From: a virus
Lineage: Duplodnaviria; Caudoviricetes
Strand: one strand, 5' to 3'
DNA length: 64,000 nucleotides
Virus record (IMG/VR): IMGVR_UViG_3300025606_000003
Coordinates: 1-64,000 of that record
Under the pieces are notes generated by a model. That model saw only the letters and a program-made list of their open reading frames with translations, ran no database searches and was not told the DNA's origin. The translations under genes were made by a program, and so were the position numbers. Below, one piece after another: positions 4,685 through 37,406 of this stretch. Every line of letters starts with the position of its first letter. Position 1 is the stretch's first letter.

Positions 4685-6379
4685 CTAGCTCTCAAGAATT
4701 CGGAATGAGTTGAAATACGTGTAAGCCCGATTGCTGAATAACCCTGCCTGCCCAATCGGGTCGCCGTAATTTTCAATCGGCACAGCAAACGTCACAGTCG
4801 GCGCGGTTCCGTCGAGCGACTCTGCTTCGACGTGCACTACCGCGCTTGTGCCAACAATTTCTGGCCGCGCCGATAGCCTGTACCACTTGTTGACGTATGT
4901 TTTCAATCTGGCTGAGTATTCCAGCACGAACTGCGCCCCGTTGTAGCGCAGCAGCCGCAGCGCGGATTGGTCTGCGTCAATGACCGCTGCAAAATACGTG
5001 GTCGGAATACGCAGCGGCGTGTAGCCGGGCAGATAGTTCAAAACCAAACCGCCGTTCTTGCTCAACCCGTCCGCCGTGATAAACAACTCTGTGCTGATTG
5101 TGCGGCCGGCGGCCCAGTCGCTGGCGCAGTTTTTGTAGAGTGACAGGTTGACACCGACAATGTTGGCTGAGGCGTACGTGTAATGTGTTGAGTACGTTAT
5201 GGACGCATTCAGCACGTCGCTGAAATGCCAATTCTCCGCCAGCGATGAACTCAACGAGTTTTCTGGGCACGCGTCTGGTGCTTCCAGCGAGTCAAAAACG
5301 AAAAGCCCCTCTTTGACAACAAAATTAGGGGCGGCGCCGTGCGTGAACTTCACGCACAACGGCAGCGCTGCGCAAATTGACGAAAAGCTTTGATCCGGTA
5401 AGCTAATCGACGACTGCACGTCTGGCGGCTGCGGTTGCTCTGGAATTTGAGTAACCGGGTTGTACCAGTATGCGTCGTCAGAATTTGCGCTCGGGTTGCA
5501 GTCGTCGGCGTAGCGCCGCCGGCTTTTTGTTACGCCGCGGTTGCACGCCTCAGACAGGCCTGTGTCTGTGATGATGTCGATTCCGTCGCACGTCCATATG
5601 GCCTCCGACTGCCCGACGCGCTGGATGTTTTCGCGAATCTCATAGCCTGTGAAACCGTCTAACACCAGGTTGATGTTGCCGTCGCAATCAGGAATCACGC
5701 CGTTAATGGTTTCAATCGGCGGTTTTGGGCATGTGCCGCTTTCCGGGCGCTGCCCACACGGGCCAAGAAAGTATTCCAACGGATTGCGACCTTCAATGTC
5801 GCCTTCAAGGCGCAACACGATTGCCGGCGTGTCGACGCCGTCGATTGGGTGTACCTCGTATTGCGCTGTCACCGGAGCCAGCCCGGAAATTTTGATCACG
5901 CCGTCAAGCGTCGTTGCAAGGTTTTCTTTACCCAGCGTTTGAACTGGCAGCGGCTGATATGCGCGGGCACAACGCGGCAAAATTAAAGATTGCGCGGGCG
6001 TGCTGTACCTACCAATGAACGGCGTATCAATACCGCGGCCGAAAACAACCCAACCAGCAACTCCTGGCAAAACCCCAGTAACGGCATAATGCACGTTAGC
6101 TGTTACTGGTCGCGGTGCCGTGACAGCTGCCACAATTGTTGTTTCTGTCGCGGCCGGGTTATCCGCCACGCCGAAAACTACTGTGACCACATTTGGCGCT
6201 ACAGTGATGCCTTGTACAAAAACATACCGACCTAGCGTAATCGGAAAGCGCAGGTGACAATCCACGAGAATATCGTCGCGGATCGTGCTGCCAGCGTCGT
6301 CTTCGCCCGTACTGGTTTCGTCCAGCGGATAACGCCGTGAAGCCTGCAGGTCGTACCAGTTTTGATTGCGTGTAGACAT
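4685..6379 (-). CDS. Cys-rich tail protein, paralogue 3 of 5, with C-terminal lectin-like beta-sandwich
   Basis: 564 aa. NWYDLQASRRYPL and ETINGVIPDCDGNINL motifs. The C-terminus (GGLVLNY...KWYRL...GQAGLF...YFNSF) resembles concanavalin-type domains. Confidence 0.65.
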   Translation of the reverse strand: MSTRNQNWYDLQASRRYPLDETSTGEDDAGSTIRDDILVDCHLRFPITLGRYVFVQGITVAPNVVTVVFGVADNPAATETTIVAAVTAPRPVTANVHYAVTGVLPGVAGWVVFGRGIDTPFIGRYSTPAQSLILPRCARAYQPLPVQTLGKENLATTLDGVIKISGLAPVTAQYEVHPIDGVDTPAIVLRLEGDIEGRNPLEYFLGPCGQRPESGTCPKPPIETINGVIPDCDGNINLVLDGFTGYEIRENIQRVGQSEAIWTCDGIDIITDTGLSEACNRGVTKSRRRYADDCNPSANSDDAYWYNPVTQIPEQPQPPDVQSSISLPDQSFSSICAALPLCVKFTHGAAPNFVVKEGLFVFDSLEAPDACPENSLSSSLAENWHFSDVLNASITYSTHYTYASANIVGVNLSLYKNCASDWAAGRTISTELFITADGLSKNGGLVLNYLPGYTPLRIPTTYFAAVIDADQSALRLLRYNGAQFVLEYSARLKTYVNKWYRLSARPEIVGTSAVVHVEAESLDGTAPTVTFAVPIENYGDPIGQAGLFSNRAYTYFNSFRILES

Positions 6380-6382
6380 GTG

Positions 6383-7912
6383 TTACTGCTGGCATTCCAG
6401 TGTGTTGCCGTTCTCATCGCAGCTGAGCGCCGCAGAATCACTTCCGTACGCAAACGAAGTCGGGTCAGACGGCTCAAGCAGAATCGGCGCGCCGTCAAGT
6501 TCGCCGGTTAAATTAACAGTTACAGCATACGGATAGTTGTTTGGGGTGAGGCGTAACCTAAACTTGACGTAAGCCGAATTACCGACGTCCACAGGCGGCA
6601 ACGTAGCCGAGAAAACTGGCCACGCGCCATCAATGGCGAACGGTTTACCGGCCACGCCAGGCGCGTACATTGTGGTATGGCCGCAAACCAGTTCAGCAGT
6701 TGCGTTATCCGGATACGTTGAAAAATTTGCTGTCATGGTGACAGATTGTGCGCACCGCTGCTGTTGGTTGCAAAACATCAAAACCACATCGAGCAACGGG
6801 CAGAACTGCGGCGTCAAAAAGGCGCGCAATGGTTTTTGCAGTCGGCAGTCTCGTTGCGTCACCCAGCGCTCGATGTTGTTTTCGTGCAACAATTTGGCTT
6901 CATGTGTGCGGGCGCCAATTTTTTTGTACCGATTGCGGACTCGGTTCATATACAACGCCGTCTCGCGATAATCCGGGCAATCGCAGCACGCCGGGCAATT
7001 GCTGCCGATTGCAATAACAGGCGCCGAGTTGGCGTAAATAGGCGTAACAACGCCCGGCGCGACGAGCGCCGTGGGGCGCCGTGTCCACAGGCAGTCGCCA
7101 GATGTAATTGTGAAGTCCCCGTATTCATTTGCGCGCGCGCCGCCAATTGAATAAATCGGCGATGTCGCATCTGCGGTACAGTCGGCGTATTTTCCGGTTC
7201 CGGCTCCGGGTTCGGCTATAAAGGTAATCTGTGTTTCGTTTCTGACGCCGGCCGCGGCTAACGCCGCGGTAGCCAGCCGGATGTTGTTGCCGCCACCAAA
7301 GATAATGCCGGTACGTTTGCCGGGGTCCAGCGTCAACGCGCCGCTTTTAACGCGGAGTGACTTCAGCCGCTTTGGCATTCGTGTAACTGTGCGCTCGTCC
7401 AATACGGCGCTTTCAGGAACTAAATGCGCAGGCCAATTGCGCGGGGCGGGCTCGTCGGTCGGTTGCCAAGTTTTGTAGACAACCAGGCGGCACACAGCGT
7501 TGTTACCGATCCACTCGTAAATATCGTAGTCGGGGCCCCAGGCGCGCGTATCAAATTTGTGGTATGTACTGTCGCCGCCTGCCGGCACCAGCTGTGTCGA
7601 GTCAAACACGGTTTGGTCATTGGCGTCGACGATAAGAATATCGGCGGCGTGCACAGGTGTCGGCGCCCACGCTGGGGCAGACGCCGGCGCGCAACCCACG
7701 CCGTAAAGCCACTTCACGCGCAGCGGGTGCTCAGCAGCCGGCACATCTGTGCGGTAGAGCCCCGGGTCGTCATACGCCAGGTAGAAGTCGGCGAATAGAT
7801 ATCTAACGTCGTCCGATGGCGCAACAAACGGGTAGTCCAGTCCGCTCTGTGGCTGGACCACACCAATTCCGCGGCGGCCTTTGGGCGATTCTGTGAACTC
7901 GTCGCAACTCAT
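6383..7912 (-). CDS. Cys-rich tail protein, paralogue 2 of 5
   Basis: 509 aa. GLDYPF, IYSIGGARANEYGDFTI, and CPACCDC followed by a helical segment. Confidence 0.65.
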   Translation of the reverse strand: MSCDEFTESPKGRRGIGVVQPQSGLDYPFVAPSDDVRYLFADFYLAYDDPGLYRTDVPAAEHPLRVKWLYGVGCAPASAPAWAPTPVHAADILIVDANDQTVFDSTQLVPAGGDSTYHKFDTRAWGPDYDIYEWIGNNAVCRLVVYKTWQPTDEPAPRNWPAHLVPESAVLDERTVTRMPKRLKSLRVKSGALTLDPGKRTGIIFGGGNNIRLATAALAAAGVRNETQITFIAEPGAGTGKYADCTADATSPIYSIGGARANEYGDFTITSGDCLWTRRPTALVAPGVVTPIYANSAPVIAIGSNCPACCDCPDYRETALYMNRVRNRYKKIGARTHEAKLLHENNIERWVTQRDCRLQKPLRAFLTPQFCPLLDVVLMFCNQQQRCAQSVTMTANFSTYPDNATAELVCGHTTMYAPGVAGKPFAIDGAWPVFSATLPPVDVGNSAYVKFRLRLTPNNYPYAVTVNLTGELDGAPILLEPSDPTSFAYGSDSAALSCDENGNTLECQQ

Positions 7913-7924
7913 GGTGCCCCTCGG

Positions 7925-8881
7925 TTAGCATGTGCTGCAGCCGGTATCGCCCAGGCGGCTCCCCAGAACAACCAGGGACATCTGCGTCACTTCTGAACTC
8001 AGCCGCGTCACAAAGCTCTGCAGAGTTGTTACACCATCGCCAAAGCGATCGATCTGCGTTGTAATAGCGTCAAGCTCTGTACACCCGCAGCACGGTTGCG
8101 CGCAGGTGTCAGACAAAAACAAACCGCCAGTGACTCGCGCAACATCGACGCACTCGCCTTGGTTGATCTGAAAGTTGCCGTCCTTGCTGCATTCGCCGTT
8201 GATGCACCGAATACACGTTCCCGTGTCATGCACGTCGCAGAAGCAATCTTCGTTAAGATTCAGCCCTGAAATGGCGCTGAACGTGATTGTCGGATCTTCG
8301 TTCTCTTGAGTGGTCAACCCAAGCCGCATGTTCGTCCCGGCGGTCAAAATGACGTCGCCGTAAATCGGCGCGCTCACTTCGCCGCTGTTCGAGATTCGCA
8401 GCCGTGTCACGGCCCGGATGTTCGGCACAATGGCGTCTGGCTCGAGCTGGCCGGCTGCGGGCGAGAAAAAATACCGGCCGGGCGGTAGCGCGTCGATCTC
8501 GTCAAGCCGGCCAATCACGATTTGCCCGATGGTGTCGGCAAAATCGTCAATGCCGCCGAGCGCGTAAGCTCTGTTTGGCGAGTACGTGCTCTTTGCAATA
8601 TTGGCTGCTGCAATATCTGGGTTGTCTTCTGTATTCGTTTCGCCGGCGTCATAGCCGATGGTGATGTTGTAACCGGTCGGCGCCAACAGCAGACTTTTGA
8701 TGTAGAACTTCTCGGGCGCGATGTTCAGCCCGGCGTTCACGGGCAGTTTCAGCGCCACGATAAAGCTGTCCGGCAACCGAATCGTGTTCAGCGTGTCTGT
8801 TTTGCTAGCGCGCTCAGTCAGCGGATAAGACCGCTGCGAGTTGTGGTTGAGCCACTGCAGATTCCATAGGCCCAAACTCAT
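7925..8881 (-). CDS. Cys-rich tail protein, paralogue 1 of 5
   Basis: 318 aa. WLNHNSQRSYPL, IRCINGECSKDGNFQI, and CAQPCCGC followed by a coiled coil. Confidence 0.7.
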   Translation of the reverse strand: MSLGLWNLQWLNHNSQRSYPLTERASKTDTLNTIRLPDSFIVALKLPVNAGLNIAPEKFYIKSLLLAPTGYNITIGYDAGETNTEDNPDIAAANIAKSTYSPNRAYALGGIDDFADTIGQIVIGRLDEIDALPPGRYFFSPAAGQLEPDAIVPNIRAVTRLRISNSGEVSAPIYGDVILTAGTNMRLGLTTQENEDPTITFSAISGLNLNEDCFCDVHDTGTCIRCINGECSKDGNFQINQGECVDVARVTGGLFLSDTCAQPCCGCTELDAITTQIDRFGDGVTTLQSFVTRLSSEVTQMSLVVLGSRLGDTGCSTC

Positions 8882-28808: not shown

Positions 28809-31682
28809 TCAAACAACGAGATGAAGTTCGATGTTGTTCAACGGCGCCGGCACGGTCAGGTTCAGCACAATTTCAATACGATCGCGGAGCAGCGGATGAA
28901 TCCGCAGCACGCTAATTTCGCCGTCGATCAGCTGCCCGCCGAGTTCGGTCGTTGTGCCGCTCGTCTTGAAGTAATCGATAAGCTTGACGACCTCAGCGCG
29001 CAGGTACCGCACCATACCGTCCGTCACATTTACGCGGCCGATGTACGGCCGTAAACGACGGAGAAAGAGGTACGACATCGAGTCGACGTTACGCCGAATC
29101 ATCTCTTCCCGACGATTCAGGTCGAGATTATCGGTTGTCAGCGCGTGCCGCGTGAACGGCGTGCCGTCGCGATTCTCCGTCACGACCCACACACCGGCCT
29201 CAGCCAGCCTGTTCAGCTGCGTTTCGTTGAAGAACTTGTACGCCCGGCTGAAGTCGTCGAAGCCGGCGACCTCGACGTTCGTCAGCGGCTGGTGCGGCAC
29301 CACGCCAGATACCAGGCCCGCAATCGCGGCAGACAGGTAATAGCCGGGCTGCATTGTGCCGGCTTCGCCTACTTGGTCGGGCCATGTGGCTACAACGCGC
29401 CGGCTGCTAAAGCTGCCGGCTTGCGTAGCTACGGCGTCAGCGACTTCGTTGCGGTTCAGGTTGCGGTAAATCTCAACCCGTTGCGCCACGGACACGGGCG
29501 CCTCAGCGCCGGCGTACAGAAGCAGCGAGCTTTCAGCCACAACACTGTCGACAACAAACTCCTGATACTGTTCCTCGCCGAAACCGTCTACCGTGTAGAG
29601 GTAGCGCACGATGTCACCAGGCTGAACGCCGTTCGTGATGAAGTAGCCGTTACCGCCCGAAACCTGCAGCAGCGTGTACTGCGTGTTTGTAGCGTTCGGG
29701 TCATCGGCCAGCGTCGCGAGCACGACTTCTTCAACCACGTTGCCAGACACTCCGGCGATCAGCGCGCCCTGACCCGCGACCTTCTTACTGGCCGGGGCCT
29801 TGAGCGCGAACACGCCGCCCTTCCAGTTGTTAGCCGTCTCATTCGACTCGCCGTTGATATGCGCGGCGTACAAATTCTGTACAGCGCGGTCGAACGTGAG
29901 CGGCACAAGGTTGTACATGTCGTCGCGACCCTTAACGCGGTCAAGAACGGCAACCCAGCTGTCCAGATCGTCGGGGTTCGCGACGGCGGTGTACTTCACA
30001 ACCGTGCCGTTGCTGTTCGACAGCGCTTTGTAGACGCCCCACTTCAGCGGGTTGTCCGGGTGCAGCTGCCCCTTGATCTGCCCAAGATCCGAAACGCTTT
30101 GGAGGCTGTTGACCTCGTCGGCCAGCTCAGCCAGCCACTCGCGGTACTCGATGTACAGCGACCCGCCGCGGACTTCGAGCGCCTGCTCGACTCCGTTGCG
30201 CGTCCACTCGGGGTGGTAGGCCACGATGCCTTCGTGCACGCAAACCTGCGTGGCTTCCAGCTCGTAGTTCGTCAGCGGCGCGTAACCCACCCGGTTCTTG
30301 GACACCTGGATGTCGTCCTTGATGAACAAGCGCAGGTCGATGTCGTCAGCCGAGCTGATGCCGGCGGGCAAGTCATCGCGGAGGATAAGCTTGCGCACCG
30401 CGCCAGCTTTGCTCGACAGCACAGGCACGTACCACTTGTCGCCCTTACGCAAACCTGCCAGGCTGTCCAACGAAGACGCCAGCACCGGATAATCAGCGCT
30501 GGGCGCCATCGTAAACGGCTGTACAGAAACGACAGCGTTGAACTTAATCGTCACGCCGTTAGAGCCGATAGCTACGGCCGTGTTAGCGGCGGTTACCTCG
30601 GTTGGGCCAGAGAAATCCAGGCCCTTAACGGTGCGCACGGTGATTTCAGGAAGATCGGCCCACACGCCGCCCTTGGTGCACTCGACGATGTAAACGTCGT
30701 TCTTGTCGCCGTCGTAGGTGCCGCCAGAAGTAGCAGCCGCGGCGTCGAACTCCTGGCTCACTTCAACTTTCCACTTTTGCCCAACGACAAGCGCGTCCGG
30801 CGCAACTTCAGCCGTACCAGCGGCCAGCGAGCACGCCGAACCCGGGTCATAGTGAAATGTGACCTTGAGTCCGCGCGTACCAATGTCGGTCGGATCGCCA
30901 AAATCGGCGGGCGTTACTTCGGCCACGTCGTCATTACCACTGGCCGAGCGCACGCGCAACCGCGCGGCGGCGCAGCCGGGTACAGACGACTTGATGACCT
31001 CGATGGTGTACTCTTCTTCCACGGCGCCGTCGAGCAGGCCGTCGTAATCACTCCCGTCGACGCTGGCCGAAATGCAGTTATTCGGGCCGGCTGTCTTTGT
31101 AATAGTCGCGGCGGCGCTGTTAACGGAATCTTGGTTATCGTCATCGGCTGCGGCGACGTCAACGTCGGAAGGAACTGTCTCGCTGGCAAAACCGGTCACG
31201 GTCGTCCACAGCGTTACCTCTTCGCAATCGTTATCGGCACTAACGGCGCGCAGGTAAGCTACGTCGCCAAGCTGCACATCGCGGTCACCAAACGCGGCGC
31301 TGCGCGGGTACGCAGTTCCGTTGTTCTTGAACGCGACGGCGCTCGCAGCAATCCAATTGCTGCGACCTTCAACAGCCGATACCGTCGTGCCAACCTGGCC
31401 GACAGTGTGCTCGTAGTACTTGAGCAGCGCGTTGTCGATGTACAGCTTCGTGTAGCTGTGATCGACAAGCGAGCCGGGGAGCCGGCCGGGATAGGCGTAA
31501 CACGTGTCGTTCAGGTAGTCGTACTCGCCGAGCTTGCCCGCCGATTTTTCTTCGGCGTCGTTGTAGCGGTGCAGGACGGCGTGCGGACCAGAGACGTGCG
31601 CGCGAAGCGGCTCCGTGATCTCCGTCGGGACGACCGCAAATTCCTGGAAAACGAGAACTTGGGGCTTAACGTAACTCGACAT
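28809..31682 (-). CDS. Contractile tail sheath protein
   Basis: 957 aa. N-terminal YVKPQVLVFQE; C-terminal HQPLTN...LAEAGV...RHALTT...IRRNVD...VPAPLNNIEL. Confidence 0.9.
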   Translation of the reverse strand: MSSYVKPQVLVFQEFAVVPTEITEPLRAHVSGPHAVLHRYNDAEEKSAGKLGEYDYLNDTCYAYPGRLPGSLVDHSYTKLYIDNALLKYYEHTVGQVGTTVSAVEGRSNWIAASAVAFKNNGTAYPRSAAFGDRDVQLGDVAYLRAVSADNDCEEVTLWTTVTGFASETVPSDVDVAAADDDNQDSVNSAAATITKTAGPNNCISASVDGSDYDGLLDGAVEEEYTIEVIKSSVPGCAAARLRVRSASGNDDVAEVTPADFGDPTDIGTRGLKVTFHYDPGSACSLAAGTAEVAPDALVVGQKWKVEVSQEFDAAAATSGGTYDGDKNDVYIVECTKGGVWADLPEITVRTVKGLDFSGPTEVTAANTAVAIGSNGVTIKFNAVVSVQPFTMAPSADYPVLASSLDSLAGLRKGDKWYVPVLSSKAGAVRKLILRDDLPAGISSADDIDLRLFIKDDIQVSKNRVGYAPLTNYELEATQVCVHEGIVAYHPEWTRNGVEQALEVRGGSLYIEYREWLAELADEVNSLQSVSDLGQIKGQLHPDNPLKWGVYKALSNSNGTVVKYTAVANPDDLDSWVAVLDRVKGRDDMYNLVPLTFDRAVQNLYAAHINGESNETANNWKGGVFALKAPASKKVAGQGALIAGVSGNVVEEVVLATLADDPNATNTQYTLLQVSGGNGYFITNGVQPGDIVRYLYTVDGFGEEQYQEFVVDSVVAESSLLLYAGAEAPVSVAQRVEIYRNLNRNEVADAVATQAGSFSSRRVVATWPDQVGEAGTMQPGYYLSAAIAGLVSGVVPHQPLTNVEVAGFDDFSRAYKFFNETQLNRLAEAGVWVVTENRDGTPFTRHALTTDNLDLNRREEMIRRNVDSMSYLFLRRLRPYIGRVNVTDGMVRYLRAEVVKLIDYFKTSGTTTELGGQLIDGEISVLRIHPLLRDRIEIVLNLTVPAPLNNIELHLVV

Positions 31683-32528: not shown

Positions 32529-33809
32529 CTAAAAGTTCCAGAAGTCGTCGGGCGGGGAAGCGGGGCCGGGAAACTGCTGCTCGGTTTCCACGCCTTCGCT
32601 GCGCTCGGTAAGCACGGCCTCGCTGCTGTCTCCCAGGATTTCCGTTTCCCAGAAGACCGTCAGCTGGCCCGCGGCGACAACCGTGATAAATTGCGTATTC
32701 GGGCCGTACTCGCCGGGCTTCTCAAAAAGCACGGCGTAATTGCCAGGATCTAATAACAGCGCGTCTGCCCAGCGCCCGTTCGCGCCAGTTGTAGTACTGG
32801 CTACAGCGTTAGCTCTGGCTGGGTAGTCTGGTTGCGCGGCATCGTAGATATCTTTTGGAAACACATACACACGCGCACCCTCGACCGGATAGCCCGTCGC
32901 GTCAGCGTACGCTAAATAATCCGGCGCGTTGAAGTTATGGTCTACCGGAACGATGCCGCAGCCAATTTGCGGCGGCACGGGCCCGGGACGCGAGGCTGGT
33001 TCGCCGCCAATCTCGATAGCGTAAATAGAGCTTGAGAACGGAATCAACCCCATTTGAATGTTGTAGACAAGCGGCACGCCACGCATAGCCGCCGCAACCT
33101 GAATGCTGTGTACCAACCAGCGCTCGTCGCTGGTGCCGTTTACCCAGATGTCGTTGCGGTTAATGCTCGGAAACCCAATTACGCGGGCGGTGACTTCGGC
33201 GTTCTCGCGGGTTGTGCCCTTAAGCTGACCGTCTTGCTGCTCTGTAATAGTCTGGGTTGACAAGTCCCAGCATTGCATAGCCAGCGGCGGGTGATAACCA
33301 ACCTCGAAGCTGGTGCCGTTACAGATCGGGCAATTCGAGTCCAGCACCTCGCCAGACAGCTCGTCGCGACAGCGCTTGCACGGCCGCCCGAATCGGTAGG
33401 GCTTGAGCAAAAACCCCGAAACACTAACGTACTTGTGCCGGAGCTGCTCTTTCCGGATAACTTCACGCGATAGCACCCAATCGCGCTCAGCCAGCTCCCC
33501 GAAACAGCTGACAGCTTGGCTGACATAGATATCTTTGTCGGTTGTCAGCGTAACCCGGTAATGCGTTAACAGGTCGCTGGCAGAGTTGCGCCACGCATCG
33601 TCATACGCAACGTAGCCGTCAACAATCGGGTTTCCGACGTTATGCCAGTCAGGAGAATCGCGCAGCCCGGTGTTCCCGAACTGCAGCTGAAAAATGCGCG
33701 GGCCGGGGTCGTTAAACGCTGGCTCTAGCTGCCACCAGACCCGCGTAACGCCGCGGATCATGTTGTCCACAGCGACCTGACGAAACGGAAATAAACGCGG
33801 TTGCGACAT
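32529..33809 (-). CDS. Neck/head-closure protein with zinc finger and C-terminal Ig-like domain
   Basis: CKRC...CPICNGTSFEVGY; C-terminal GYPVEGARVYV...TTTGANGRW...LDPGNY. Confidence 0.6.
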   Translation of the reverse strand: MSQPRLFPFRQVAVDNMIRGVTRVWWQLEPAFNDPGPRIFQLQFGNTGLRDSPDWHNVGNPIVDGYVAYDDAWRNSASDLLTHYRVTLTTDKDIYVSQAVSCFGELAERDWVLSREVIRKEQLRHKYVSVSGFLLKPYRFGRPCKRCRDELSGEVLDSNCPICNGTSFEVGYHPPLAMQCWDLSTQTITEQQDGQLKGTTRENAEVTARVIGFPSINRNDIWVNGTSDERWLVHSIQVAAAMRGVPLVYNIQMGLIPFSSSIYAIEIGGEPASRPGPVPPQIGCGIVPVDHNFNAPDYLAYADATGYPVEGARVYVFPKDIYDAAQPDYPARANAVASTTTGANGRWADALLLDPGNYAVLFEKPGEYGPNTQFITVVAAGQLTVFWETEILGDSSEAVLTERSEGVETEQQFPGPASPPDDFWNF

Positions 33810-33815
33810 GTTTTG

Positions 33816-33823
33816 ATTATAGC
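33816..33823 (-). promoter_or_regulatory. Putative -10 element of a leaderless/short-leader promoter
   Basis: GCTATAAT lies 6 nt upstream of the ATG at 33809; no SD. Confidence 0.5.
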
Positions 33824-33856
33824 TGCAGAGCGCTGATAGCTAAGAAAAAGACGCAA

Positions 33857-34450
33857 CGAGCAGTCAGAGACTGCTCGCTCTCGGCGCGCGTCCGCCGCAG
33901 AATGTCGTACTACAGGGCCGCCCGCCGGGGCGACGGTCTCGTATTGACTCAAACCCAATCTGGTGGGTTCCAACCTGCCGCAGACCTTGGCATGAGGTTG
34001 GCTCACGTGTTTGTTGGCACACGCTGAAGCCTGGACTGCGATGTTGCCGCCACGGTCGGGCGCTCCCCGACGCGTCCGTCGGATTGGGTTTGCGACGTGC
34101 TAGCGTTTCGCAAAACCACAACTTTCTGCCGAGGGGTACGCCCCAAGGCGAGGCTGTCGCAACAACCTCCGGTGTGCGGGTGGCAGAGCACTGTATCCCA
34201 CAGTGTTGACTTCGCTGCAGTCTTGCTGCAGCTGGCTTGGACCCTTTTTGGCTTCGACGCACTGACCAAGCAGAAGTGCGTAGGTTCCGCGACGACCTCT
34301 CGGTCGCCGGTACTTCACCGGGCGCCGGAACAGCGCTTTCGGGAAGGCCGATTTATCGGCGTCAGCAGCGACTCGGGTGCTGCCGCAGCAGCGTCGATGG
34401 CGGCGGAGTCGTTGCTATCGCCAGCCATCCAAGATAGCTATTACCCTATC
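33857..34450. ncRNA. Candidate large structured non-coding RNA (~600 nt), strand unresolved
   Basis: The only large intergenic gap in the window. It is tiled by more than a dozen helices, including an 18-bp long-range stem (33951-33968/34074-34091) and a pseudoknot (34235-34281). Confidence 0.65.
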
Positions 34451-34479
34451 AATCTATATGCCCGGTTTTTGCCCAATAT

Positions 34480-35499
34480 TTAGTACCGGAGCCGGAGGCC
34501 GCTGGCGTAGGCGCTGTACTTGTAATTGCTCGTTACTTCGCCGTAGCAACCCTCAAGATTCAGGCTAGCTTTGGTAGCGCGCACCCACTCGCGGTACGCC
34601 TGCCAGCGCATTTGCCCGGCCTGCTCGTACATGGGCGCCTTGTTCTGGTCGTTGATCTGCATGCCCGCGGCGGCATACTGAAAATCATTCCGGCGGTACT
34701 GCTCGGCCACCATGAAGAACAGGTTGGCCACAATTCCTTCCAGCCAGTGATAGCGGAACGGAAAGTTTTGCGTGTTGTAGACGGCGTCAATCGGCGGCGG
34801 GATCTCGTTCCAGTACATAACCGGCCGCGCGATCGCCAGCGCAATCTCGGCGTCATCAAACATGAGGTTATCGAGCAGGTAGCTTTCGCCGGGACTTGAG
34901 TCGCGCAAATGCAGCCGGATTTCTGCGATGCTGGGCGGCCCACCGTTTTCATTGTCTGGACCGAACAGGCTGCGCGTTATGACCAGCGAGAACGTGTTAG
35001 AGAACACGACGCACGGCAGGTCTTGGCTTTCTGCGACTGTGCTAACCAGCGCCATCTCAGCGTAGTAAATACCTGGCAACTTCGTCATCTCGGCGGTCAA
35101 CTCCGCCTCAACGCGCCCTTCAGCCGCGTTTACGACCGCGGCCTCGACTTCAAATGGCGGGCGTGCATTGCCCCACGACAGTTGCTCTTTCAACCGAAGC
35201 ACGACGCGATAGTCGATTACCGTAGACGAGCTTTCTAAGTCTTCTGGAAAGCCGCACGCTTGCAGACTTACTGGGCGCCCCTCTTTGTCGTGCAGTTGCC
35301 AGGCGACTGTCGCGCACTGGCCCTGGTTCACAGCAATAGACCGCATACGCCCAAGAACAGGCGCGCCGTTTACTGTGCTGACCGAAGCGCTGAGAATGTT
35401 CTGCCCAGCGCACGACACCGGAAAAAGACCGCCGACGGTTGTAATCGGCGCGGGTGTCGGGATTACGGGCTGAGAAGCTGGCGTAGCAATCACAACCAT
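34480..35499 (-). CDS. Head-tail adaptor/neck protein with N-terminal Ig-like domain
   Basis: EIRLHLRD...FDDAEI...YWNEIPPP adaptor-like C-terminal half; position after the capsid genes. Confidence 0.65.
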   Translation of the reverse strand: MVVIATPASQPVIPTPAPITTVGGLFPVSCAGQNILSASVSTVNGAPVLGRMRSIAVNQGQCATVAWQLHDKEGRPVSLQACGFPEDLESSSTVIDYRVVLRLKEQLSWGNARPPFEVEAAVVNAAEGRVEAELTAEMTKLPGIYYAEMALVSTVAESQDLPCVVFSNTFSLVITRSLFGPDNENGGPPSIAEIRLHLRDSSPGESYLLDNLMFDDAEIALAIARPVMYWNEIPPPIDAVYNTQNFPFRYHWLEGIVANLFFMVAEQYRRNDFQYAAAGMQINDQNKAPMYEQAGQMRWQAYREWVRATKASLNLEGCYGEVTSNYKYSAYASGLRLRY

Positions 35500-35579
35500 A
35501 TCGTCACCTCGCGCAGAAGAGCGTAGATATCACGACAACAAAAGTGATAAAGATGGCGCGCATGGCGAATACCTACGAG

Positions 35580-35611
35580 AAAAGGCTGGCCGCTTGCGCA
35601 GCCAGCCTTTT
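35580..35611. terminator. Bidirectional intrinsic terminator ending the capsid operon
   Basis: aaaaggctggc-N10-gccagcctttt. Confidence 0.75.
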
Positions 35612-35639
35612 CAGTGGTCACGTTAGCCGGCAACAAAAC

Positions 35640-36005
35640 TCAGTCGTCGTTCTGTACCCAGTCGGACGTGCCGGTCCCAGCCGGATCCCAGCCGGGATCG
35701 ACCGTGCCGAGCACGCGACCGTGCAGCGCCAGGGCCGCCGTCGTGTCGTCTGTCGTGCTCTTGAGGTAGACGGCCGGGGAGCTGACAATCTTGAGGCTGC
35801 CGCCCACCAGCGCGGCCTCGAGGGCCTTGAACTGACGCAAGCTGCGCTTCGCGCCGAGCTTCGTTACAAGGTCGCCCGGGACCGTGTACGTCTCGTTCGC
35901 CTCAAGACGCTTGCCGTGCGTGCCAAGAAAACCGAACACCGCGGTGGCGCCCGACGTGTTCTCAACCGTGGTGTATAAACCTGTGGTAACCGGAACGTAT
36001 GTCAT
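35640..36005 (-). CDS. Hypothetical virion protein
   Basis: 121 aa with GGAG SD, in the capsid operon. Confidence 0.6.
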   Translation of the reverse strand: MTYVPVTTGLYTTVENTSGATAVFGFLGTHGKRLEANETYTVPGDLVTKLGAKRSLRQFKALEAALVGGSLKIVSSPAVYLKSTTDDTTAALALHGRVLGTVDPGWDPAGTGTSDWVQNDD

Positions 36006-36021: not shown

Positions 36022-36405
36022 TTACTCGGCGTTGCTCGCGGCGAGCGCGGCAGCCGATTGCAGGGTCAGCACAGCCGACGCGATGTCAGCCTGATTCGCC
36101 GCGGCGCGGGCAACGTCGTCCCACGCGGCAGCCTTTTCTGTTACGGCAGCGCCTGGAACACCTAACAGGGCGTCCAGCTGATTGCTCGCAACAGTTAACG
36201 CCGAAACGTTAGCAGCCGCGGCTTTCTCTTGCTCAACCGCGTAGAGCACGTGGAGCTTTTGCGCCACGGACCACATTTCCGCGGCTTCCTTTTCAGAGCG
36301 CGGCGCGACGCCGTTCGCGGCGAGCTTCTCGAAAAAGTATGGCGCTGCAAGCTTCGCCACAATTGTGTTGTATGCTTGCTCGGCCGCGGCCTTCACATTG
36401 TCCAT
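36022..36405 (-). CDS. Ala-rich head protein with K-x-A-A repeats
   Basis: 127 aa, AGGAGG SD; 6 of 7 Lys are in KxAA. Confidence 0.65.
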   Translation of the reverse strand: MDNVKAAAEQAYNTIVAKLAAPYFFEKLAANGVAPRSEKEAAEMWSVAQKLHVLYAVEQEKAAAANVSALTVASNQLDALLGVPGAAVTEKAAAWDDVARAAANQADIASAVLTLQSAAALAASNAE

Positions 36406-36428
36406 GGTGCCCTCCTTGGCACAGGGTT

Positions 36429-36461
36429 GGGAGGCGGGCGTTTACAACGCGCCCGCCTCCC
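36429..36461. terminator. Strong GC hairpin after the major capsid gene (terminator or mRNA stabiliser; no U-tract)
   Basis: gggaggcgggcg-N9-cgcccgcctccc. Confidence 0.55.
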
Positions 36462-36479
36462 GTCCTCAGTTTAGAAACT

Positions 36480-37406
36480 TCACTTGAAGTCCACGCGGGC
36501 CAGACCGTTCGTGTGACCGAACGAGCCACCCTGCGTGTTATAGGCAAAGTACTCGAGCATGTAAGCCTCACGACGGATGTACATCGTGGTGGGCTCGAGC
36601 TCGTAATTCTTGCCAATGAACTTGGGTGACGCAAACATGAACAAGGAATCGTCGGGCACGAGCGAGCGTTTGATTGTCACAATCCAACGGGTGTTGAGAA
36701 AGTTAGTTTCCGCCCAGCCGTTCTTGATGATGTCCTGCGAGAAGTCACCGCCCATTTCGTCGCGACCGAACTTGAGGAGTTCCTTGATGGTGATGTTATT
36801 CACCAAGCAGGTCTCAACCTCGAAGTGCGAGGGCGTACGGGGCATGATCTTCAGGGCATCGACGAGCGTTTCGCGCGTGATACCGCCGTGGATCTCCTCG
36901 TACTGCACCGCGCCAGACGCCACGTTCTCAACACCCGGGGTCGGGAGTACGGCGTTGAACGCCGCGATGAACTTGGAGTCTTCTTCCGCCAACATGTCTT
37001 TGATCATGTTGTCAGAAAGCACCTGCCGGATGTCGATCACGTAAGTCCGAAGCTCGTCGACGTCCTTCTGCGCGCGGGGCGACACGATCCGGTCAAACAT
37101 GACGCGGTAACGCGGGCCACGGATGTAGAAGTTAATCGGGAGCGTCGCAAACGGGAGCGACACAGCCGCCGGAGAATCGGGCTCCTTGTCGACCACCTTC
37201 ACCGGCTTGTCCGTGTCGACCTGGCGGTCGAGCTCGTCATTGGTGATGGTGAGCGGCGGCATAATCCGCCGGTAGAACCCGTCTTCACGCATCTTGGTGC
37301 GCGTGAAGTCGTTAACTGCATCAACGGCCTGCTTCTGCATGCCGGGGGTATCGAGCTGCTCGAAAAGAGTCTCGTTGAGCAGCTGGATTTCTTGCTGAGT
37401 GGGCAT
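36480..37406 (-). CDS. Major capsid protein (HK97 fold expected)
   Basis: 308 aa, GGAGGT SD, strongly biased codon usage. Follows protease, scaffold and decoration genes; REDGFYRRIMPP motif. Confidence 0.75.
   Translation of the reverse strand: MPTQQEIQLLNETLFEQLDTPGMQKQAVDAVNDFTRTKMREDGFYRRIMPPLTITNDELDRQVDTDKPVKVVDKEPDSPAAVSLPFATLPINFYIRGPRYRVMFDRIVSPRAQKDVDELRTYVIDIRQVLSDNMIKDMLAEEDSKFIAAFNAVLPTPGVENVASGAVQYEEIHGGITRETLVDALKIMPRTPSHFEVETCLVNNITIKELLKFGRDEMGGDFSQDIIKNGWAETNFLNTRWIVTIKRSLVPDDSLFMFASPKFIGKNYELEPTTMYIRREAYMLEYFAYNTQGGSFGHTNGLARVDFK

Follow-up and report, generated by a model that had tools for sequence, protein, structure and literature searches.

A hairpin-rich, non-coding cassette between two virion-module genes of an uncultivated freshwater myophage is a candidate accessory RNA unit in a swap-prone slot

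Several systems have been described in which phages carry variable units between conserved core genes, or encode large RNAs. In T4-type phages, repeated composite terminator/promoter motifs flank variable cargo in hyperplastic slots. The cassettes that these promoter-early stem-loop (PeSL) composite motifs delimit carry mostly orphan cargo, described in terms of ORFs (Arbiol et al., 2010, PMC2839356; Comeau et al., 2014, PMC4122927), and the PeSL type is further characterized by early sigma-70 promoter activity, termination and mini-circles as recombination products. The locus analyzed here has a similar layout, with small terminator/promoter motifs that are repeated in the genome and lie between conserved core genes, and relatives that differ by insertion, deletion or replacement exactly at the motifs. 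It differs in that it belongs to a different phage family, that of a ~200-kb freshwater myophage, that its putative signal motifs (CTAAAT-N16-GGCATAT and TTAGCTATCAG) have other sequences, and that the cargo is non-coding. With phage morons it shares the character of an autonomous unit with start and stop signals of its own, placed between two late structural genes and dispensable in relatives; however, it holds no ORF and the product would be RNA. It resembles GOLLD (RF01998), ROOL (RF03087) and the phi29 pRNA in that it resides in a phage, measures 0.6 kb, is rich in helices and has no known function. Unlike these RNAs, it has no covariance-model match at E up to 10 and no family of relatives, it is mostly a string of short, local, perfect hairpins instead of a covariation-supported long-range architecture, and it does not lie beside the tRNA cluster of its genome (98-100 kb).

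The window, i.e. the whole 64,000-nt stretch that was analyzed, opens a 107-kb virus record of IMG/VR (IMGVR_UViG_3300025606_000003), of which it takes up the first 64 kb and which is estimated to be 52% complete. The source phage is an uncultivated freshwater (lake) myophage of the ~200-kb type, and about 50 related loci could be collected from lake phages of similar size in freshwater metagenomes. All long ORFs of the window lie on the minus strand, and the genomes of this phage family are otherwise tightly packed. The sole large ORF-free interval of the window is the gap at 33810-34479 between two genes that we call gene A and gene B. An earlier reading of the letters alone (the sequence-only reading) had singled it out as the only large non-coding gap, and this is borne out, since every other gap of at least 375 nt in the first gene map holds a plausible 115-145-aa ORF on the minus strand. 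The cargo body (33880-34445, minus strand) is orphan, non-coding and rich in hairpins, and would yield an RNA of ~590 nt. tRNA and tmRNA genes were sought within the window and none was found.

Both flanking genes encode conserved virion-module proteins. Gene A (34480-35499, minus strand, 339 aa) is 54-78% identical across about 50 related loci, and gene B (32529-33809, minus strand, 426 aa), located two genes upstream of the tail sheath gene (28809-31682), is 47-70% identical in relatives. Sequence searches of gene A against Pfam, PHROG and PDB gave no match, and its AlphaFold model is poor (pLDDT 61), with weak, low-TM, Ig-like matches to phage connector and baseplate proteins. Gene B has a weak match to CarboxypepD_reg and likewise a predicted model of poor quality, and a family assignment was obtained for neither gene. 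The names "adaptor" and "neck" given to the neighbors in the sequence-only reading are therefore not backed by these searches and are plausible on grounds of position only. Very stable local structures are also found at 35500-35699 and 36401-36600, in or beside short gaps of the capsid module (200-nt z -5.1 and -8.2); these are probably terminators or attenuators.

The gap is framed by small sequence boxes. A promoter-like box, CTAAAT-N16-GGCATAT (34456-34483, minus strand), heads the cargo and overlaps the TAA stop codon of gene A, both in the window and in the nearest relatives. Five copies of this box are present in the 107-kb record, and nine, six and eleven copies in three complete relatives. 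All of them lie on the gene strand and none on the opposite strand, a reversed-pattern control gives 0-1 matches, and four copies fall within 15 kb where 0.01 would be expected. Behind gene A the box is present in about 23 of the related loci, among them all those with a delimited insert. The other copies of the record (95254-95281, 95930-95957, 96808-96835 and 103782-103809, all minus strand) precede small genes, among them two for membrane proteins and one for a 52-aa basic protein behind a 446-nt leader. Most copies end in CATATT, the one at the cargo in CATATA. We infer that the box is a promoter; a search for a published description of it found none.

At the other end, an intrinsic-terminator-like hairpin with a U-run (33845-33879, minus strand) has its stem at 33879-33855 (11 pairs and a loop of 3) and the tail GCGTCTTTTT. 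The element at 33879-33845 thus has the hallmark of an intrinsic terminator, a GC-rich hairpin with a U-run behind it on the predicted RNA strand; its efficiency is uncertain because the U-run begins 5 nt past the stem. Directly behind lies a restart box (33816-33843, minus strand), composed of TTAGCTATCAG, an 11-nt spacer and a TATAAT six bases before the ATG of gene B. This box is the sole part of the gap that is conserved in relatives by blastn and nhmmer, and conservation covers no more than the last ~40 nt of the gap. Cargo-bearing relatives have a GC hairpin and a U-run at the equivalent place, followed by TTAG(C/A)TATCAG, a motif that in the window occupies 33833-33843. It recurs on the minus strand of the record at 94568-94578, 95297-95307 and 95986-95996, again directly after terminator U-runs, and the order of hairpin, U-run and TTAGMTATCAG is the same at 94578, 95307 and 95996. 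The motif, conserved in relatives, may belong to a restart promoter, serve as a regulator site or mark the point at which cassettes recombine. Gene B has no Shine-Dalgarno sequence, and the TATAAT six bases ahead of its ATG is perfect (33807-33821). The terminator would separate gene B from the transcript of gene A, so that gene B would be restarted at TATAAT in a leaderless manner, and this arrangement suggests that the gene B mRNA is leaderless in cargo-bearing lineages. In some cargo-free relatives, with a gap of 2 nt, gene B is probably translationally coupled to gene A.

Comparison with relatives shows that the conserved item is the slot and not the sequence of its cargo. Most relatives have 2-64 nt between genes A and B, and in the closest one, whose A and B proteins are 78% and 70% identical, 22 nt separate them. 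This relative stems from a sample that also holds the insert. One run with the insert also contains a related strain with 63 nt at the slot, and another run a relative with a different insert of 1080 nt. Other lineages carry 0.66-3.9 kb of unrelated coding cargo in the A/B slot: two paralogous ~95-aa proteins with a ...VDW...I... motif (loci L002-L005 and L016, about 5015-5870), a 120-129-aa protein, a 189-aa protein, or a 3.7-3.9-kb block (loci L018 and L021, about 5000-8870) that includes a 274-286-aa ATPase with a Walker A motif (GTGKT) and a ~490-aa protein, which may act together in defence or counter-defence. All other delimited cargoes of the slot are protein-coding, and an RNA cargo would therefore be the exception. 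Seven contigs and at least 4 DNA runs contain the insert in identical form. Two features that define PeSL units are thus found here. A terminator-like stem-loop is combined with a promoter-like element at the boundary (hairpin 33879-33855 with its U-run, then TTAGCTATCAG...TATAAT), and the motifs are repeated and conserved while the cargo varies, as judged from copy numbers, strand and relatives. We regard this as a resemblance of function, a slot that would work like a PeSL slot, and not as membership in that class.

Further units of the same record deserve description. A second box-headed unit lies at 94590-95281 (minus strand; L062 2590-3281), with a 446-nt non-coding leader that contains 9 perfect hairpins and has a period-3 signal of 0.09 (596-nt window z -6.4), followed by the 52-aa basic ORF with a strong Shine-Dalgarno sequence and then a terminator. 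Nucleotide matches to this unit are absent from 11 relatives. The cargo is not a paralogue of its hairpin-rich leader (95250-94805), as the two have no similarity. Behind a small membrane-protein gene, the region 68450-69229 (minus strand; L061 4450-5229) folds with z -3.5 on the minus strand and a z of -1.6 for the plus strand; a non-coding portion (68450-68705) may here adjoin a doubtful ORF of 169 aa. A tmRNA gene is present at 98809-99154 (minus strand; L062 6809-7154; Rfam RF00023, 110.7 bits) that ARAGORN did not report, and five tRNA genes adjoin it (98271-100424).

The gap is non-coding DNA. Its period-3 GC signal is 0.43 overall and 0.03-0.4 locally, compared with 2-6 for the genes tested, small accessory genes of the phage included, and a codon-usage signal is absent from every minus frame. 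A protein-coding orphan is accordingly a highly improbable reading, in any of the forms that might be proposed: a 37-aa ORF starting at 34428, its 141-aa extension by TGA read-through, or one of the open frames of 130-160 codons. Such a protein could be suspected because stop codons are few (19 in six frames against 32 ± 6 in genome windows), because a public pipeline called an 86-aa ORF on the plus strand, and because the ATG at 34428 lies ~27 nt behind the promoter-like box. The scarcity of stops is explained by the 62% G+C. The 37-codon ORF (34315-34428, minus strand) is the sole ATG ORF of the gap and is followed by an in-frame TGA and 103 more open codons. With a codon score of 0.02, no Shine-Dalgarno sequence and an AUG inside a helix of 10 predicted base pairs, it is probably not translated. 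No ORF of the gap has a Shine-Dalgarno sequence, which many genes of the phage do have. Recoding of the TGA was rejected, as TGA is an ordinary stop in this phage and is used 14 times. The 141-aa read-through product had no match by phmmer among 1.84 billion representatives and none in Pfam, a Pfam search with seven frames of the gap was negative, and word-index protein searches returned no homologue for a 162-codon minus frame and only the window's own called ORF for a 150-codon plus frame.

At the nucleotide level the cargo is an orphan as well. No homologue was detected by blastn against 50,697 phage records or 11 related whole records, or by tblastx and blastn against all related loci collected. 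Exact-word scans of IMG/VR contigs (a 19-mer and a gapped stem pattern) gave no relative, and a scan of a genome collection turned up a single MAG with a 21-nt chance match. The nearest lineage with cargo has two small proteins at this place; a profile of them and nhmmer with their DNA recovered the terminal restart box only. The idea of a decayed copy of these two genes was rejected, since the cargo has no similarity to them. The genome contains neither a second copy nor a significant complement of the cargo, on which grounds a DGR template and a trans-acting antisense RNA were rejected. The sole other copies are contigs with 99.9-100% identity and DNA runs; no RNA run is among the runs listed with the insert, an outcome that carries no information on expression. 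The only sign that the cargo may have a diverged relative is a 151-nt contig from a metagenome run of 2022, which matches the 101 nt at 34206-34306 with 87% identity before passing into unlike sequence.

Rfam 15 covariance models (including GOLLD, ROOL, HEARO, pRNA, group I/II introns, RNase P, tmRNA, 6S and CRISPR repeats), run on the window at gathering thresholds, gave no match anywhere in it, and a relaxed search of 33600-34700 (E up to 10) returned just a 13.9-bit chance match to P10 inside gene B. The models did recover the tmRNA and four tRNAs elsewhere in this genome, which served as positive control, so that the blank at the gap is meaningful. The expectation that no known Rfam family would be found has thus held. 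The step from there to a new RNA class does not follow: a class requires relatives, none were found, and the closest relative has 22 nt at this place. Lack of homologues also means that neither covariation nor conservation supports selection on an RNA or its fold. Likewise, a role of the RNA in head/neck assembly or on the phage RNA polymerase, as had been proposed, is unlikely, since the element is missing from the five near-complete relatives searched and is therefore not a core part of the virion programme. We therefore treat the cargo as a candidate accessory RNA and not as a demonstrated new RNA class.

What sets the cargo apart is the density of short perfect local hairpins. Fold and hairpin statistics were computed on the predicted transcript (34445-33850, 596 nt, minus strand), and perfect hairpins were defined as stems of 5 or more pairs with loops of 3-8 nt. 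The transcript contains 14 of them in its 596 nt, and their stems measure 5-9 bp; dinucleotide shuffles contain 4.06 ± 2.04 (0 of 1000 reach 14) and genome windows 4.28 ± 2.72 (0.3% reach 14). Perfect stem-loops begin at 33857, 33952, 34006, 34055, 34067, 34189, 34214, 34293, 34307 and 34347. Added up, the stems reach 80 bp, the highest value in the 107-kb record. Its other windows with many hairpins include the tRNA/tmRNA cluster, the region of small-gene cassettes and an Ala-rich ORF. The individual helices of the sequence-only reading are all present in the sequence. Its description of a region almost fully tiled by helices, in contrast, is uninformative, since 66% of the bases are paired and 64% in shuffles.

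The global fold is not exceptional. The minimum free energy (MFE) of the cargo has a z score of -3.87 on the minus strand (0 of 150 dinucleotide shuffles as stable) and of -2.55 on the plus strand (2 of 150). However, 59 minus-strand 596-nt windows of the genome have a mean z of -1.36 (sd 1.68), and seven of them reach -3.87, three within long ORFs, which places the cargo within the top ~12% of its own genome's windows. Ensemble diversity and G-U content are shuffle-like, the centroid is near the MFE on the minus strand only, and over the whole gap the MFE has the same value on both strands. A long-range stem encloses three or four hairpins in a central multibranch domain (33950-34092). It had been described as 18 bp long, of which 11 bp are perfect (33950-33960/34082-34092, not assigned to a strand); the full 18 bp need five G-U pairs, are available on the plus strand only and are not part of the plus-strand MFE. 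On its own the domain has a z of -1.9 on both strands, and a covariance model built from it found only itself among 12 records. The strand evidence, which had been called mixed, now leans to one side: minus is the likely RNA strand because the promoter-like box and the terminator lie on it and its z score is better. The hairpins themselves are perfect Watson-Crick palindromes and therefore equally present on both strands, and they could have originated by template-switch mutation in unconstrained DNA.

A multi-hairpin RNA could conceivably act as a decoy, encoded by the phage, that soaks up an RNA-binding regulator, for which CsrA is the most concrete candidate. Hairpins with an A-N-GGAG hexaloop and stems of 4-5 bp, a shape that resembles CsrA operators, stand directly before the start codons of eight genes of the record (minus strand; 31695, 36415, 37418, 38006, 53170 and 62097 in the window, 81084 and 102695 in the record), among them the sheath gene and three capsid-module genes that adjoin the gap. 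CsrA (PF02599) is encoded by five of five near-complete relatives. A csrA gene was not found in the 107-kb, 52%-complete record, where, by synteny with one complete relative, it would lie beyond the start of the contig. The cargo is also similar to CsrB/RsmZ as a multi-hairpin non-coding RNA with its own terminator and, here, a promoter-like box. A strain-specific sponge expressed from an early-class promoter would retime the synthesis of virion proteins. The sequence of the loops speaks against the idea. The minus strand of the cargo holds 8 GGA in 596 nt, no more than composition predicts. Of these, 5 are in hairpin loops, where about 1.9 are expected from the genome-wide density, and 4 such hairpins occur on the plus strand as well; none of those in the cargo has the A-N-GGA-N hexaloop seen in the operator-like hairpins of the phage itself. 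CsrB/RsmZ-type sponges call for loop GGA far above chance, and membership in this class was rejected on these counts. We thus consider a decoy very unlikely.

Three further explanations have to be weighed against a functional RNA. A DNA-level element, i.e. a replication origin, a packaging site or a recombination hot spot, would fit palindromes that are strand-symmetric and a slot that is recombinogenic, but it is hardly credible here. Iterons and direct repeats were sought in the gap and none was found, nor was there an AT-rich unwinding stretch or a change in skew, and without repeats an origin or iteron element was rejected. The palindromes all differ in sequence and are therefore not a repeated protein-binding site. 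Absence of the element from the five near-complete relatives that were searched rules out a core origin or pac site. Somewhat less remote, and still unlikely, is a cis-acting insulator or 3' stabilizer, in which the array would guard the 3' end of the gene A mRNA and block read-through, with gene B expressed separately. The array does lie directly behind gene A and ends in a terminator and a restart box, and parts of the cargo are complementary, over short lengths, to the final 60 nt of gene A. However, a single terminator would suffice for this task, most relatives keep genes A and B 2-64 nt apart, and the cargo has a promoter-like box of its own.

The most serious competitor, which we hold to be possible but rather doubtful, is transcribed filler without function. 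Here the frame would be what matters or what recombines, the 590 nt inside it would be leftover or scrambled DNA, and the palindromes would have arisen by mutation (quasipalindrome correction) without selection on an RNA. Several findings fit such filler: an orphan sequence with no relative in the collections searched, in a slot that tolerates complete absence of cargo, with palindromes that are perfect and strand-symmetric, a whole-gap MFE equal on both strands, a global z that is ordinary for the genome and ordinary ensemble measures. It is harder to reconcile with a 3.4-fold excess of perfect hairpins and a summed stem at the genome maximum, both unexpected in neutral DNA, with the tight packing of the family genomes elsewhere, and with an insert that is unchanged in several samples. 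Filler left by a recently decayed gene is further disfavored because no coding periodicity is left, locally or globally, and because its lack on both strands means that the gap is not a recent gene fragment in any orientation.

The reading that we prefer, with a probability of roughly 45%, is that the cassette cargo is a lineage-specific, accessory, moron-like non-coding RNA unit in a swap-prone slot. In favor of an RNA function count the hairpin excess, the intact start and stop signals, the unchanged persistence across samples and the tight packing elsewhere; against it count the lack of relatives, the dispensable slot, the strand-symmetric perfect palindromes and the ordinary global fold. 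The non-coding character, the excess of hairpins, the boundary motifs, the variable slot and the lack of relatives are observed; transcription, the RNA ends and any RNA function we infer from the DNA. In the proposed order of events, the family-wide promoter-like box (34483-34456) would start an RNA near 34448 on the minus strand. This non-coding RNA of ~590 nt would fold, mostly locally, into roughly 14 stem-loops and would end at the hairpin and U-run at 33879-33845. At TTAGCTATCAG...TATAAT a new transcript would then start for gene B, whose mRNA would probably be leaderless. Recombination at the conserved boundary boxes, by the route described for the PeSL cassettes of T4-type phages, would have brought in or exchanged the cassette, in the same frame that elsewhere holds protein genes.

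The boundary boxes, CTAAAT-N16-GGCATAT at the start and the terminator with TTAGCTATCAG at the end, would provide a simple handle for a family-wide search for cargo. Whether the cargo is a functional RNA or filler, there is no evidence here for a conserved virion-assembly RNA. Even as filler, the cargo would attest to shuffling of the PeSL-like kind beyond the T4-like phages. Should the RNA be made and have a function, it would mean that large uncultivated phages use their swap-prone slots to trade genes for non-coding RNAs in addition to those for small orphan proteins.
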